From sequence record NC_028894.1: DNA of 64,000 bases, one strand, 5' to 3'. Origin of the DNA: Escherichia phage vB_EcoM_VR20. Positions within the stretch are counted from its first letter, which is position 1; each line of letters begins with the position of its first letter. The notes beneath the pieces were generated by a model. That model did not search any database and was not told where the DNA came from. It saw only the letters and a list, made by a program, of their open reading frames with translations. A program made the position numbers and the translations under genes. Of this stretch, positions 15,902 to 22,763 are shown in pieces.

Positions 15902-17962
15902 CTACGAAAGGAATTTAGGAGGAATAGCTTCCAAATTAATACAACTAGCAAGAATACCAAGACCTTGATTGACTTTCTTCGTTACCCCAGAGGATGCAAA
16001 CGATGCAAAGTCAACAGATTCTACTGGCTCTTCTGTTTCCTCGCCCTGATAAACGACAAGCTCACCAGTTTCCATCAACACATCACCATCATAGATAACT
16101 GCATTTTCATCCAGTTGGTCCGTAGTCTGGATATCAGCTTCCAGCATTTTGACGTTCGCGTTTCCTTGATACGAAGCATCAGTAATTTTGGTAATCTTAA
16201 CTACAGTCCCACGAGGAAGAATAACTTCCTGCTCGGACGGGTTGCTTGACAATTCACCAGGAACAATTACGTTAATTAAGTCCGCCCCAGAAATTTTCCA
16301 ACCAACATGCATCATTACGTGGTCGCGGCGTGCATCCGGCATATCTGGTAAAACAATTTCGTCATCAGCCTGGAAAGATGTCCCATCACGATAGTCCTGA
16401 TGAACTGCAGCCATAGCAACGTTCGCCACCCAGCCACCAAAGATAATCGGTTTAAACGACGTTGATACATAGTTCCTGAAATAAAATAATTTAGATTTCT
16501 TAATTTTATCAAATGTAGGAACGTTTAAATATTGACCACGCCAAAGAGTTGTATTAGGCGGCAACTTATGTCCAATTTCAAAGGCCGAATCCAATTCCTT
16601 AATTGTTTCGACAACTCTGTCTAGATTTAGGAATTCAGCTTCTTCTTCATAATATTTGCCCATCAAATAATTATTAATATCGGCATAGTTTGCTCCACAA
16701 TAATCTGCAATTGCTTCTCGCTGGCCATAATGGAAACGGTTGTCAGTATACCCTGCTGTGAAATTAAGAGTATTTTCTGATGCTTCTTCGGCAAAGTCTT
16801 TAACTGCAACACGAATGGCGCTTGTGTATTCTTTTTCCCAGAGCGAGGCTGCATAAGTGGCTGCATCCAGGTTAGGAGGAGCATCATTCATTTTTCTTTC
16901 GATAAATGCGGCTTTGCGAAGGTTAAGAATCTCTGCACATGATTCGGCAAAAATCTGCATCTGCTTCATACTGCCAACAGGAGCACGTTTAAGTTCACGA
17001 TGCATACGGTTAAAAATTGGGTCAGAGTCTTCAATACGAATTTCTTCTTTCCAAACACCATTTGCTCGCATAGCCGCATCTGCTGCGCGCATACGAGCCA
17101 TAGTATTCGTTTCGGAAGGTCGAACAAAAATTTCCAGTTCTTCATAATCATCGATAAGTTCTGCCGTAGCCGGTCGACTAAACTTAGCAGCTTCTGCATC
17201 AATTTCGTCCCAGCCATCGGGCACGGAATCACTTGGAGCATACTGGGCTTGTGCAATAGCTCGGCGACTGATTTTAGTTTTCTGGGCAACAGCAGCATCG
17301 GTCTTTTTGTTTGCTGCGTCAATCAGAACTTCGGCTGCGATTTCTTGTTTGGAGACTTGTGCGCCTGTATCTTTATTAGTGAATACATCGCCAACTTTAG
17401 TTTCAACTTTTTGATATTTCTCAGGGACTGGTGGCATACCATCAACCGAAAGCAGGTCAACACCCTTTTTGTACATAATTACATAAGCGTTCTTTTTACC
17501 GAGGCCAGAAGCATTCGGAAGAACATGATAACGCCCGCTGGTTTTCATTTGAATCAGTCGATTCATAATACGAATAACAGCTTGGTCTTGCCCTTTCATT
17601 TTTTTGGATGGGAAACGGAACAAGACTACATCAGGTTTGCCTAGTTTAATGCTTTCCCAGACTGTAACAAAAATCAGGTTAATCGCATCAAGAGGTTTTT
17701 CACCTAGACCACCCTTCAGAGGAACAGCATGGCCATGTGAAGTCCCGGAGAGCAGGAATACCTCGGCAATTGCATCGCCGCGTTTATATTGTTTAACTGT
17801 TTCTTTGCCCGTGAATTGCATCAAACGGGCCATAAGAGAATTGGTCCCAGGAACACCGAATTGCCAAACCTGTGGGACCTTGTATTTCGGATTCATATTA
17901 ATGACAGGATAACCGAAGGCTTCGATATATTTGTCAAAGAGTTCATTTAATTGTTCAGACAT
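15902..17962 (-). CDS. alt: Alt, ADP-ribosyltransferase packaged in the head
   Basis: 686 aa (T4 682); position between gene 54 and gene 30. Confidence 0.75.
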   Translation of the reverse strand: MSEQLNELFDKYIEAFGYPVINMNPKYKVPQVWQFGVPGTNSLMARLMQFTGKETVKQYKRGDAIAEVFLLSGTSHGHAVPLKGGLGEKPLDAINLIFVTVWESIKLGKPDVVLFRFPSKKMKGQDQAVIRIMNRLIQMKTSGRYHVLPNASGLGKKNAYVIMYKKGVDLLSVDGMPPVPEKYQKVETKVGDVFTNKDTGAQVSKQEIAAEVLIDAANKKTDAAVAQKTKISRRAIAQAQYAPSDSVPDGWDEIDAEAAKFSRPATAELIDDYEELEIFVRPSETNTMARMRAADAAMRANGVWKEEIRIEDSDPIFNRMHRELKRAPVGSMKQMQIFAESCAEILNLRKAAFIERKMNDAPPNLDAATYAASLWEKEYTSAIRVAVKDFAEEASENTLNFTAGYTDNRFHYGQREAIADYCGANYADINNYLMGKYYEEEAEFLNLDRVVETIKELDSAFEIGHKLPPNTTLWRGQYLNVPTFDKIKKSKLFYFRNYVSTSFKPIIFGGWVANVAMAAVHQDYRDGTSFQADDEIVLPDMPDARRDHVMMHVGWKISGADLINVIVPGELSSNPSEQEVILPRGTVVKITKITDASYQGNANVKMLEADIQTTDQLDENAVIYDGDVLMETGELVVYQGEETEEPVESVDFASFASSGVTKKVNQGLGILASCINLEAIPPKFLS

Positions 17963-17996: not shown

Positions 17997-18015
17997 TAAA
18001 AAAGGGCCGAAGCCC
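17997..18015 (-). terminator. UUCG hairpin terminator downstream of gene 30
   Basis: A-run, gggc-cgaa-gccc, then tttt. Confidence 0.55.
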
Positions 18016-18020
18016 TTTTG

Positions 18021-19553
18021 TTATTTTAATCCAGTCTTTGACCAGTCGCCAAATACATCTTCGAATGTGTCTGCATGGTCTTTATCGAAACGGAACCCTT
18101 TGATAATCGGCAGGAACAATGCAACCGTATTATCTTTACGAGTCTCGGAAGTCAACCAACCATTACATTCACAGTCGGCAATCATTCCAACCAATTCACC
18201 TTTACGGGCTTTAACCATCAAGGCTTCACGGTCCATTTCATGACGCTCCTCAATCGGAATAGTAACCCATTTTTTGGTTTTCTTATCTTTAACTTGAGTT
18301 GTGTCTTTAAAACCAGAACCACAGTTATTTGTAATCTTACCACAAGAAGAACGAAGCACAACACCACCAATCTTATTCGGGTCTTTATCGTGCTCGTAAT
18401 ATCCAATGATTTCCATTGCAATGTCAATTACTTCTTTGAACTTGTACAAGTTCTTTGAGCGCTTGTTTTCCCAAATCGATGCCATGTTCTTAAGGATAAT
18501 ACCTTCAAGACCTTCATCCACATATTTCTTATAGATAACCTTCGCTTCATCGAGATTGTTAACAACATGGTTTTCAATCAGAATCATGCGGTCAAAACCA
18601 TGCAGCACCACGTTATCTGCAATCATCTTTTCCAGAACAGCAAAACGCACATCGTATTTCAACGGATTGAGAATCTTAACATCAGAATAGACTTCAATCA
18701 GTGGAACATAATCCCAAACCTGGAATTTCATACAAGCAGCTTCTGTTGCCGAAATAGTTCCTTTCAATGATTTGTTTGCCAGACCATTTGAAAAGGTTCT
18801 TGATTCCGCAGTTTCTTGTGCAGGGGCAATCTCATTTGAATCGTCAAAAAGGAAGCCCAAACCGTCATTCTGGGGAGCTACTTTCTGTTCATGGTATACT
18901 AACTCACCGTCAATCAAAACGCCCTCAGGATGTCTCTCACGCGCTTCACGAGTAGCTTCAATCAATTCCTTTTTAAGGAGGTCAAGCTTGAGGTATTCGT
19001 TGCCAGCTCGGGATAACAATCGAACATCATCCAACTCATCGCCACGAACTTCTGCAAAACACCGAGCGCCGTCGGCTTTCAATTGTGCAAAGGCCGGGAA
19101 CTTAATGTTCTTGGCAATACCGGCTTCATCATAGGAAGAAGCGAGCATCTGCGGTTGTTCTGGAATTAAACCTTTCCAAACCTTATTTGCAATTGATACG
19201 GATGCCCCGCATTCCAGGTCACGCATCATCACACGGCGCAGGACTTCAACATCTGCTTTTTTACCATCGGCAATATAGCCAGATAATTCCTCGATTGCAG
19301 CATTACCTGTTAATTTACGAGAGGCCAATGTGAATTCGATAAAGTCAAGCATATCATCGATATTCAGCATACCAAAGCTTTGAGTCGTTGTTCCAGGTTT
19401 TGGCCATTTCTTGATATAGAACTGGATGCCTTTGGAATATGTCAAACGATACACACGTTTGAGGGTTTCATTGTCAGAATACGATTCCAGAATAGCTTGT
19501 TTCTCTTTAGTAGAATCGGTTGCAGCAATTTCATTTAAAATATCTAAAATCAT
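18021..19553 (-). CDS. 30: ATP-dependent DNA ligase gp30
   Basis: Adenylation motif KADGARC; strong recalled T4 ligase identity; ATG with AGAGGTGA Shine-Dalgarno. Confidence 0.9.
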   Translation of the reverse strand: MILDILNEIAATDSTKEKQAILESYSDNETLKRVYRLTYSKGIQFYIKKWPKPGTTTQSFGMLNIDDMLDFIEFTLASRKLTGNAAIEELSGYIADGKKADVEVLRRVMMRDLECGASVSIANKVWKGLIPEQPQMLASSYDEAGIAKNIKFPAFAQLKADGARCFAEVRGDELDDVRLLSRAGNEYLKLDLLKKELIEATREARERHPEGVLIDGELVYHEQKVAPQNDGLGFLFDDSNEIAPAQETAESRTFSNGLANKSLKGTISATEAACMKFQVWDYVPLIEVYSDVKILNPLKYDVRFAVLEKMIADNVVLHGFDRMILIENHVVNNLDEAKVIYKKYVDEGLEGIILKNMASIWENKRSKNLYKFKEVIDIAMEIIGYYEHDKDPNKIGGVVLRSSCGKITNNCGSGFKDTTQVKDKKTKKWVTIPIEERHEMDREALMVKARKGELVGMIADCECNGWLTSETRKDNTVALFLPIIKGFRFDKDHADTFEDVFGDWSKTGLK

Positions 19554-19562
19554 AATCACCTC

Positions 19563-19841
19563 TTAGTCGTTGGCTCTATTATATGCCACATCTTCCAAAA
19601 GCAAATCCAGACGCTTATGATAAGAGAACACAAATCTCATTCGCCCATCTGGTTTAAACTTAGACATAAAGTGAACATAGATAAACCCTTGCTCAACGCA
19701 TTCACGCCAAACCGGATGGTCTTTGGCTGGGTTAATATCAAACGAGTAATCATGATTCACATGACGAATAAACTGATTAACATGGCCATAATCCATGGTA
19801 GTAGTAGGACCGTAATCAGAAATAGTATGAACGACAAACAT
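19563..19841 (-). CDS. Hypothetical protein (T4 30.1 position)
   Basis: 92 aa; ATGA overlap with the upstream gene. Confidence 0.5.
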   Translation of the reverse strand: MFVVHTISDYGPTTTMDYGHVNQFIRHVNHDYSFDINPAKDHPVWRECVEQGFIYVHFMSKFKPDGRMRFVFSYHKRLDLLLEDVAYNRAND

Positions 19842-20665
19842 CAATTACCCCCTTGGCCACCGGTCGGTTGATTGTACCAATATTCAATGCCAGTACCTAC
19901 GCGTGGACCATATTGATATGGATATGCTGGATTATATCCAGGGGTCCATGGTTGACCTGGTTGCCAGCCTTGCTGCATTTGTTGTTGAAGACGTCGAGTT
20001 TCACGAAACAGTTCGTCCAGTTTACGGAGTTCATCAGGGGTGAATTCTGGTTTGACTGGTTCATCTTTGTGTTTCAGTTTAAGCTGCCCAGCTACATCGT
20101 CCCAATTAAAAACTTTGGAAGCTGTTTTAGGAATAGCATTACGTTCGCCACGGGCCATCCAATAAACCGGGACTTCAAGGATTTCACTCGCATGGTCGCA
20201 ATGGTGTGCAAGGTCATCAATATAACAAACGACATTATATTTGGTCTTCGCTTTCTGGAATAACTCTTCTTTAGAGGCTGTATGGCCGCACATCATCACT
20301 TCTTTAAATGCACCAGGGAACAAAGCATTCAGGTTGAATTGACGATTCAGACGGGCGTCAATGGAATCACCCAGAGCCGTAACAGCCACAAAATCATATT
20401 GCTCTTTGAGGTTATTAATAACCCTTAACGCATCTGCGTAAGGAGACAAATAACGAATAAAATCTGAACAGTTATATTTCTCAATCAACTGTGCTCCCAA
20501 CTCTTCATCACAATTGAACAGTTTACCAGGGGTCACAAATTTTTCATCCTGAATCATCTTAAGGATATGTTCCAGGGGTAAATTATATTTTTGGGCGAAA
20601 TAAGGCAAGCCTGACTGCCATGACAAACATACGCCATCAATATCTGTTAAAATAACGGGTTTCAT
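19841..20665 (-). CDS. HAD-superfamily phosphatase-like protein with Q/P/G/Y-rich tail (T4 30.2 position)
   Basis: N-terminal ILTDIDGV is an HAD motif I, with a later DD motif; low-complexity C-terminal tail. Confidence 0.6.
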   Translation of the reverse strand: MKPVILTDIDGVCLSWQSGLPYFAQKYNLPLEHILKMIQDEKFVTPGKLFNCDEELGAQLIEKYNCSDFIRYLSPYADALRVINNLKEQYDFVAVTALGDSIDARLNRQFNLNALFPGAFKEVMMCGHTASKEELFQKAKTKYNVVCYIDDLAHHCDHASEILEVPVYWMARGERNAIPKTASKVFNWDDVAGQLKLKHKDEPVKPEFTPDELRKLDELFRETRRLQQQMQQGWQPGQPWTPGYNPAYPYQYGPRVGTGIEYWYNQPTGGQGGN

Positions 20666-21120
20666 AATGCATCTCTCAATTGGTTAAGTATGTCAATAAA
20701 TTCTTGTTCAGTCAATATTGTATCATGAACAGTAAGGTGGCTCGCCATCGAATGCTTTAAAACTTTGCCCTTTGTAGCTTGTAATGCGTCGCGGAATCCT
20801 TTGTTTTGGAGCGCTGCTTCAAAATATGCATTTGTATACAACTCTTTCCATGATGTAGAGTATCTTGAAAAGGGAATTCCAAGCCAGAAAAGCGTCCCAC
20901 GGTCCGCAGCTCTAGCATAAGCTCTTCCACTTTGCTGGGCGGCCAATCCGGACATCCCAAATATACGTTTTTGTTGTTCACAATTTCTCACCTTACACCC
21001 TTGCAGGAAGCCTTCAAGACCTCCAAACTGGATGCCCTCCATAACAAAAGGCCATTTAGCAAAGTTACTTAATGCGCATGATGGCCATGGGAAATTGCTT
21101 CTGATTTCTAACTCAGACAT
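20662..21120 (-). CDS. NADAR/YbiA-like protein, tentative (T4 30.3 position)
   Basis: Motifs LSNFAKWP and EGFLQGCK resemble YbiA/NADAR as recalled; not search-verified. Confidence 0.5.
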   Translation of the reverse strand: MSELEIRSNFPWPSCALSNFAKWPFVMEGIQFGGLEGFLQGCKVRNCEQQKRIFGMSGLAAQQSGRAYARAADRGTLFWLGIPFSRYSTSWKELYTNAYFEAALQNKGFRDALQATKGKVLKHSMASHLTVHDTILTEQEFIDILNQLRDAL

Positions 21121-21325
21121 CTTTGACACTTACTACATCAACGTTTGCCCAATGACCATAACCAGGTAGACGGTCTTTAATAGATAATCCACCGTCAGAT
21201 TTCAGCATTTTAATTGTTTTAGTATATGGTTCAATATTTCGGGCCCATGGACTCACGTCAGTTACGCGATAAGTAACTTCAACCATTTCTGTGCCCAAAA
21301 TTTTCTGAATCAGTTTCTTAAACAT
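21113..21325 (-). CDS. Hypothetical protein
   Basis: 70 aa ORF with ATG start in a tightly packed minus-strand array. Confidence 0.5.
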   Translation of the reverse strand: MFKKLIQKILGTEMVEVTYRVTDVSPWARNIEPYTKTIKMLKSDGGLSIKDRLPGYGHWANVDVVSVKDV

Positions 21326-21326
21326 A

Positions 21327-21521
21327 TTATCCTCGCCTTAAACATTTGATTACAGACAGTTCACCGTCCATGCGAACGTCTTCAGTTCCATCAACCCACA
21401 GGACTACGTAGGCTTCTTTAATTTGTGTATTACCCAATTTAAAAGCAGGCAAAACCTTAGAAATCATTCCAGGAATACCTACGCCTTTTAACTGGACAGT
21501 TTGTGATAAGAATAGTTGCAT
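21327..21521 (-). CDS. Hypothetical protein
   Basis: 64 aa ORF with ATG start. Confidence 0.45.
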   Translation of the reverse strand: MQLFLSQTVQLKGVGIPGMISKVLPAFKLGNTQIKEAYVVLWVDGTEDVRMDGELSVIKCLRRG

Positions 21522-22650: not shown

Positions 22651-22734
22651 TTTATTCTCCAGTGTTTTATTGTGTAACTCAGTATGGAATCATTATGCAC
22701 TGGACCAACCCTGTTGTAAACCTTTTATGGAAAT
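22651..22734 (-). promoter_or_regulatory. Early promoter plus conserved leader repeat
   Basis: TTTACA-17-CATAAT, then leader TCCATACTGAGTTACAC..CACTGGAGAATAAAATG shared with 38309, 57450 and 61474. Confidence 0.5.
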
Positions 22735-22758
22735 AAAAAAGGGACTCCGAAGAGTCCC
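22735..22758 (-). terminator. UUCG hairpin terminator
   Basis: A-run then gggactc-cgaa-gagtccc directly after the stop of the 53-aa ORF. Confidence 0.55.
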
Positions 22759-22763
22759 TGAAC

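Follow-up and report, generated by a model that had tools for sequence, protein, structure and literature searches.

Gene 30.3 in a T-even phage is an orthologue of the anti-DarT factor gene adfN and adjoins the gene for a predicted HAD-superfamily phosphatase

The analyses of a 64,000-nucleotide stretch of Escherichia phage vB_EcoM_VR20 DNA (hereafter, the window) identified gene 30.3 as an orthologue of adfN and its neighbor, gene 30.2, as encoding a protein with a haloacid dehalogenase-like (HAD) fold. We are highly confident in the joint reading of the two genes, namely that gp30.3 is the anti-DarT1 factor AdfN and that gp30.2 is a separate HAD phosphomonoesterase which stands outside the counter-defence. 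The initial annotation of this DNA had suggested that gp30.3 could remove ADP-ribose from guanine and so counter DNA-modifying toxins such as DarT. This reading is right, and it had already been published: removal of ADP-ribose from guanine as a counter to DarT has been demonstrated experimentally for the T4 orthologue, AdfN, and the proposal is therefore a rediscovery. The results obtained here are the identity of the genes, the two folds, the conservation of the catalytic residues, and the synteny of the locus.

The window derives from a T-even phage with approximately 96% identity to SP18, a Shigella phage, and its relatives. For the DNA between positions 19500 and 21400, the identity to Escherichia phage CJ20, SP18, and their relatives is 95–97%. 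SP18 is classified in the Tevenvirinae, genus Gaprivervirus, and its annotation has the identical gene order; in the records of the closest relatives, including SP18, both 30.2 and 30.3 are labelled hypothetical. The genes form a closely packed minus-strand block that, when compared with the T4 annotation, has the T4 order alt-30-30.1-30.2-30.3-30.4 (Table 1). The alt product aligned over its full length with T4 Alt (35% identity, E 3e-128). The two genes of interest had been described as lying next to alt, which is accurate as far as nearness goes and not in the sense of directly adjoining it, as gene 30 and gene 30.1 intervene (about 1.9 kb).

Table 1. Genes and functionally important codons in the alt to 30.4 region of the window.
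Feature	Position	Strand	Remarks
alt, ADP-ribosyltransferase	15902-17962	-	Pfam PF03496 (ADPrib_exo_Tox), E 2.3e-19
Gene 30, ATP-dependent DNA ligase	18021-19559	-	Pfam PF01068, E 2.7e-28
Gene 30.1 (DUF3045)	19563-19841	-	Pfam PF11243, E 6e-17
Gene 30.2, predicted HAD-superfamily phosphatase, 274 aa	19841-20665	-	
gp30.2 HAD motif IV, Asp150-Asp151 (Mg2+ ligands)	20213-20218	-	Invariant; end of strand 145-150
gp30.2 HAD motif III, Lys132	20270-20272	-	Invariant
gp30.2 HAD motif II, Thr96	20378-20380	-	At least 90% conserved; end of strand 91-96
gp30.2 HAD motif I, D8-I-D10-G-V (nucleophile Asp and Asp two on)	20630-20644	-	D8, D10, and G11 invariant
Gene 30.3, adfN orthologue, NADAR superfamily, predicted guanine-ADP-ribose DNA glycohydrolase, 152 aa	20662-21120	-	
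AdfN residues 138-152 codons, C-terminal helix	20665-20709	-	Helix 138-151 in model; intact here
AdfN His123 codon (CAT), third active-site position	20752-20754	-	Invariant; after model strand 120-122
AdfN Lys43 codon (AAG), phosphate coordination	20992-20994	-	At least 90% conserved; T4 AdfN K43A loses function
AdfN Glu36 codon (GAA), catalytic	21013-21015	-	Invariant in 48 homologues; T4 AdfN E36A loses function
Gene 30.4, 70 aa, directly upstream of adfN	21113-21325	-	PHROG 2042, E 6e-33

The end coordinate given in the initial annotation, 21120, proved to be the true ATG of 30.3; this start gives a protein of 152 residues and an 8-nt overlap with the stop of 30.4, both as in T4. A GTG at 21129 was rejected as the start, being merely the first in-frame start codon returned by the ORF tool. 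The stop of 30.3 overlaps the start of 30.2 by 4 nt (ATGA), again as in T4, and based on this overlap the two genes are probably translationally coupled. In the sequence TGATG, the 30.2 stop codon shares one base with the ATG start of 30.1. A scan of the sequence for promoters and terminators returned 16 promoter-like sites, with 16.6 expected from shuffled sequence. As no promoter or terminator signal exceeded the shuffled expectation, we make no claim on transcription units.

Searches with gp30.3 produced a match to the Pfam family Phage_30_3 (PF08010) with an E value of 5.4e-64 and a score of 214.6 bits (cut-off 36), spanning positions 2 to 138 of the 138-position model. This match, like that of gp30.2 to PHROG 420 described below, greatly exceeds what chance would give. 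Relatives of the protein were found in 1509 phage records, nearly all of them T4-like. The LSNFAKWP and EGFLQGCK motifs that had been pointed out as resembling those of NADAR proteins are indeed present, within ALSNFAKWPFVM and LEGFLQGCK. Eighteen positions were invariant in an alignment of 48 homologues with identities down to 35%, including S18-N19-F20, E36, Q40, and H123, and K43 was conserved in at least 90% of the sequences. The spacing of E36 and K43, with the Lys seven residues after the Glu, matches that of NADAR proteins from Phytophthora (E43/K50) and E. coli C7 (E88/K95). Structures of NADAR proteins defined the catalytic residues as a Glu, a Lys seven residues on, and an acidic residue at a third site, where phage NADARs have a His (Schuller et al. 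2023, Mol Cell). This third site is a His in the phage gp30.3 clade, a Glu in the YbiA family, and an Asp in DarT1-linked NADARs.

The predicted alpha+beta fold of gp30.3 is that of a NADAR protein and contains the active-site Glu, Lys, and His. Its best structural matches were the Phytophthora NADAR with ADP-ribose (8bau_A, score 11.8), E. coli YbiA (2b3w_A, 11.4), and the DarT-associated NADAR of Geobacter lovleyi (8bat_A, 9.6), and the next best match was to an unrelated protein (4.3). The T4 sequence row was left out of the structure-model alignment. In the PDB, a profile of the gp30.3 family also matched E. coli YbiA (E 0.007), with the alignment running over the SNFA...E...Q..K motifs; a single-sequence phmmer search of the PDB returned no match. 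Neither of the outcomes that the initial annotation had named as refuting it, the lack of a significant profile match or a fold without the NADAR catalytic residues, was observed. The NADAR family PF08719 was not among the Pfam matches of gp30.3 (E up to 1), and the match to NCBIfam TIGR02464 (E 0.13, 12.5 bits) was below its cut-off of 73.7. Some gp30.3 homologues have both a PF08010 (Phage_30_3) and a PF08719 (NADAR) domain. The missing match to a NADAR-named model is an effect of how the models are split and does not contradict the NADAR fold, and the assignment of gp30.3 to the NADAR proteins rests on the fold, the motifs, and the literature.

The enzyme activity and the anti-DarTG1 phenotype were established by others for the T4 orthologue. 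[quoted passage not shown] In that study, deletion of adfN rendered T4 and T2 sensitive to DarTG1, purified AdfN stripped ADP-ribose from DNA, and the E36A and K43A mutants were inactive. Phage RB69 is sensitive to DarTG1 as a frameshift deletes the last 15 residues of its AdfN, and it was rescued by ectopic AdfN (Nat Commun 2025;16:1598). In vitro, purified T4 gp30.3 hydrolysed guanosine-ADPr and not thymidine-ADPr (Toxins 2024;16:208).

Based on these reports, the proposed mechanism is as follows. AdfN would be a small stand-alone NADAR enzyme produced early in infection. The host DarT1 toxin would ADP-ribosylate guanines of the phage DNA, and AdfN would then cut the bond between base and ADP-ribose via Glu36, Lys43, and His123, such that replicable DNA is regained and the phage may escape DarTG1 abortive infection. 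Neither uninfected cells nor unrelated phages gained protection from AdfN, and the authors proposed that a further T-even factor potentiates it (Nat Commun 2025;16:1598). As AdfN appears to need this factor, the mechanism as stated is incomplete. With regard to the window, we infer from the retention of E36, K43, and H123 and the full C-terminal helix that gp30.3 is an intact, probably active AdfN orthologue. The C-terminal segment, residues 138-152, is essentially the part that is absent from the RB69 frameshift allele.

The product of gene 30.2 has the features of an HAD protein. It begins with MKPVILTDIDGVCLSW and contains CYIDDLAHH, which bears out the earlier recognition of an HAD motif I and a DD motif, and an alignment of 44 homologues showed motifs I, III, and IV to be invariant and Thr96 of motif II to be at least 90% conserved. 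Relatives of gp30.2 occur in 1438 phage records. The protein matched PHROG 420 (E 2e-78), a family to which no function is assigned, and was 66% identical to T4 gp30.2, with the first ~195 residues well conserved and the tail divergent. The AF2 model has a confident core with a Rossmann-like HAD fold. An HAD core and helical cap occupy approximately residues 1-195. A helix (residues 210-232) comes next, and the protein ends in a disordered tail in which Pro, Gln, Gly, and Tyr are frequent. The cap consists of helices within residues 16-72 that are inserted right after motif I. In the HAD superfamily, the combination of such a cap with a second Asp, two positions past the nucleophile, points to a phosphatase for a small substrate.

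Domain models gave little for this protein. The match to Pfam HAD_2 (E 0.051, 14.1 bits) was below the curated threshold of 23.8, searches of NCBIfam returned no match, and a precomputed Pfam HAD domain was present in none of the approximately 130 gp30.2 relatives listed. A search with the family profile yielded only more relatives of phage type, none with a Pfam annotation, and did not connect the family to any cellular subfamily that has been characterised. The gp30.2 clade has diverged too far for current models to recognise, and its membership in the HAD superfamily consequently rests on fold and motifs. A literature search on gp30.2 produced nothing relevant and no published phosphatase assay. 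Taken together, gp30.2 is predicted to be an HAD phosphatase, and it may act as a Mg2+-dependent phosphomonoesterase with a helical cap.

The helical cap indicates that the substrate of gp30.2 is probably a small phosphorylated metabolite, and several signals, none of them significant alone, weakly suggest nucleotides. In sequence searches of the PDB, the best match was to the mitochondrial 5'(3')-deoxyribonucleotidase, across motif I and the cap, and was weak (E 0.14-0.25); the value of 0.14 was reached with the family profile, and single-sequence matches to the PDB were insignificant. Deoxyribonucleotidases were among the top structural matches, with sugar-phosphate phosphatases scoring equally well. 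Of the 44 family members, four gave weak matches to Pfam NT5C (PF06941); the window protein gave none. In the viral structure library BFVD the matches were mostly unnamed phage proteins, and among the named ones outside the gp30.2 family, 5' nucleotidase was the usual label. The substrate class that we infer is consequently tentative: a (deoxy)nucleoside monophosphate is our best guess, with a probability somewhat short of even, and another small phospho-metabolite has close to an even chance.

The adjacency of 30.2 and 30.3 raises the question of whether their products act together. A two-enzyme module, in which the HAD protein is the T-even factor of AdfN or processes the released ADP-ribose (or a phosphorylated derivative of it), would be consistent with the ATGA overlap and probable translational coupling, with the genes adjoining in T4 and all its close relatives, and with the proposal by the AdfN authors of a T-even protein that potentiates AdfN. 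The similar numbers of records for 30.3 (1509) and 30.2 (1438) also fit such a module, although they are uninformative since nearly all T4-like phages have both genes. Evidence against a module came from a T4 transposon library grown on control and DarTG1 cells (HIDEN-SEQ preprint, supplementary Data S6). Insertions in 30.3 were lost on DarTG1 (log2FC -7.25, adjusted p 0), which confirmed the earlier AdfN findings, whereas those at 71 sites in 30.2 were not depleted (log2FC -0.12, p 0.61). Across the T4 genome only two genes were significant, 30.3 and 30.4 (log2FC -1.79, adjusted p 0.014 for the latter), and 61.2 (adfA) was not among them (log2FC -0.34, p 0.58). On K-12, neither 30.2 nor 30.3 is essential. 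Synteny also argues against a module. In a survey of 80 viral-contig loci with an AdfN homologue, 30.2 was found within 4 kb of 30.3 in 20, which were T-even-like loci plus a few with extra genes between the two, and in the other 60 it was not within this distance. Where present, 30.2 stays beside the ligase gene, which was located just downstream of it in every surveyed locus that had 30.2 and enough flanking sequence. The adjacency is a conserved gene order within one subfamily, the close T-even relatives, and not a conserved pairing. Based on the screen and the survey, gp30.2 was rejected as a co-factor of AdfN, and we consider a two-enzyme module very improbable. The genes would lie side by side through shared ancestry of the gene order, and not through a role of 30.2 in DarT counter-defence. 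Another reading of gp30.2, which we regard as unlikely, is a nucleic-acid end-healing 3'-phosphatase that readies nicks for the neighboring DNA ligase, in the manner of the T4 polynucleotide kinase phosphatase domain.

The same data bear on alt. The heading of the initial annotation had hinted at a function shared by the HAD protein and Alt, and this is not supported by the T4 screen, in which insertions in both 30.2 and alt (log2FC -0.01, p 0.97) left growth on DarTG1 cells unchanged. A shared function based on proximity to alt was rejected, as alt insertions were neutral and the linkage is gone in distant relatives. It could still be argued that gp30.3 mainly balances the phage ADP-ribosyltransferases (Alt, ModA, and ModB) acting on host protein or RNA, with the anti-DarT activity being secondary: adfN shares an early-gene region with alt, 1.9 kb away, and a comparative-genomics survey reported T4-like NADAR genes to be expressed early alongside ADP-ribosyltransferases. 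However, the NADARs tested use guanine-ADPr in DNA and not thymidine-ADPr, adfN is not near alt in most distant T4-like loci, and its loss produces a strong, DarTG1-specific phenotype while being tolerated on K-12, where Alt is active. We therefore think a balancing role highly unlikely. Alternatively, gp30.3 might act on small molecules in the way of E. coli YbiA, such as riboflavin intermediates or soluble ADP-ribose-derived immune signals, and not on DNA adducts. We consider this very unlikely, as the removal of ADP-ribose from DNA by the T4 protein was directly shown by two laboratories and the third active-site residue is a His, as opposed to the Glu of the YbiA family. The preferred reading is that gp30.3 is a DNA-directed anti-DarT1 enzyme.

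The depletion of 30.4 insertions on DarTG1 provides another candidate for the T-even factor of AdfN, the 70-residue gp30.4, whose gene belongs to the same, probably translationally coupled, cluster. The 3' end of 30.4 contains the ribosome-binding region of adfN, and a polar effect on adfN is consequently the simplest explanation of the depletion. The authors of the HIDEN-SEQ preprint stated that polar effects were not widespread in their data, and the preprint makes no mention of 30.4. Homologues of gp30.4 were found upstream of adfN in 12 of the 80 loci, all of T-even type. An iterated HMM search upstream of the distant adfN genes identified no gp30.4 homologue, a result that speaks neither for nor against a partnership. 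We regard gp30.4 as an improbable candidate for the factor.

Based on its intact adfN allele, the window phage is predicted to be resistant to DarTG1, unlike RB69, and adfN status may be useful for picking phages against hosts that carry DarTG. Beyond annotation the finding is of little importance; the hypothetical labels of both genes in the closest relatives could be updated. The gp30.2 family is widespread in T4-like phages and has no Pfam model, making it a reasonable, ordinary target for enzymology.

The known protein closest to gp30.3 is T4 AdfN, to which it is 85% identical in a gapless alignment over 152 of 152 residues. The window keeps E36, K43, H123, the intact C-terminal helix, the 30.4-30.3-30.2 order, and both gene overlaps. 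The 23 substitutions among the 152 residues include none at an invariant position, and the phages themselves differ in that the window phage is closest to SP18, a Gaprivervirus and not a Tequatrovirus. The differences from DarG1 (of E. coli C7, and of Geobacter lovleyi, 8bat) are more substantial. The window gp30.3 has no DarT partner gene, its neighbors being 30.4 and 30.2; the N-terminal extension usual in DarG1 is missing from the protein; and its third catalytic residue is His123 where DarG1 has an Asp. In addition, T4 gp30.3 was unable to substitute for DarG1 in uninfected cells. The phage protein is thus an orphan relative that stands outside the DarTG1 toxin-antitoxin system. E. coli YbiA (2b3w) and the Phytophthora NADAR (8bau) are only 19-22% identical to gp30.3, and the YbiA family, whose role is in riboflavin metabolism, has a Glu where the phage clade has a His. 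For gp30.2, the comparison is with the 5'(3')-deoxyribonucleotidases (human mitochondrial, 2jao; cytosolic, 6g2n; staphylococcal, 3bwv), whose sequence similarity to the phage protein is insignificant and which lack the additional helix and disordered tail at the C-terminal end of gp30.2.

Gene 30.4 is the immediate upstream neighbour of adfN (gene 30.3), whose T4 product counters the host DarTG1 defence. According to the published preprint of the HIDEN-SEQ transposon screen of T4 on DarTG1, 30.3 and 30.4 were the only significantly depleted genes (30.4: log2FC -1.79, adjusted p 0.014), and the depletion of 30.4 was passed over there without discussion. Homologues of gp30.4 were detectable at 12 of the 80 viral-contig loci that contain an AdfN homologue, all of them T-even-type. 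The depletion of 30.4 on DarTG1 could be either a polar effect or the consequence of a co-factor role of gp30.4 for AdfN.

Features in and around the adfN gene block
Feature	Coordinates	Strand	Remarks
alt, 686 aa	15902-17962		single copy in the window; adjoins ligase gene
Symmetric GC hairpin	18000-18019		between ligase gene and alt
gp30.2 C-terminal tail, ~aa 196-274	19841-20080	minus	beyond HAD core
74-codon ORF, GTG start	20757-20981	minus	inside adfN, other frame; counterpart of T4 annotated gene 30.3'
Gene 30.4, 70 aa	21113-21325	minus	overlaps adfN start by 8 nt
Promoter-like site	22720-22692		upstream of 30.8; 10/12 matches
Terminator-like hairpin	22759-22740		upstream of 30.8, before promoter-like site

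Among 12 close relatives (AdfN 84-95% identical), 11 preserve a 76-codon open stretch of the 30.3' frame within adfN, and the open frame was inconsistently retained among distant AdfN homologues; the ORF may be passively carried along with adfN. Several gp30.3 relatives were themselves truncated, to 89-126 aa, or fused (protein database entries P0013, P0014, P0016, P0018 and P0019), the fusion partners being other T4 early-gene domains (PF11097 and PF06919). By analogy with the RB69 allele, a frameshift that removes the last 15 residues of AdfN in a DarTG1-sensitive phage, the phages carrying these variants would be predicted to be DarTG1-sensitive.

The surrounding block also differed in length between phages. 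Positions 19500-21400 of the window (1901 bp) were matched in the close relatives CJ20, TH44, TH54, PSD2001 and TH57 by two pieces spanning ~2120 bp, so that, judged from the matched lengths, there is ~220 bp extra in these relatives somewhere within the 30.1-30.4 block.

The tail of the HAD-type phosphatase gp30.2 was predicted to form a helix (210-232) followed by a disordered stretch in which Pro, Gln, Gly, Tyr and Trp are abundant. Such tails were hypervariable or missing among gp30.2 relatives, with 70 of 128 cluster representatives consisting of the core only. A near-terminal motif, (T/G)G(I/V)EY(L/W)xx(Q/R)PT, was common to 18 of the 58 long forms, including T4-type and Klebsiella-phage types, and could be a docking peptide.

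The two hairpins and the promoter-like site (22692-22759 and 18000-18019) could together bound a transcription unit running from 30.8 to 30, the DNA ligase gene, but overall the frequency of promoter-like sites did not exceed that in shuffled sequence. Beyond the ligase gene, Alt shares just 35% identity with its T4 counterpart. In Shigella phage SP18, the closest relative with an annotation, alt is present as two tandem paralogues, alta and altb (L082 1-2955), whereas the window has one.
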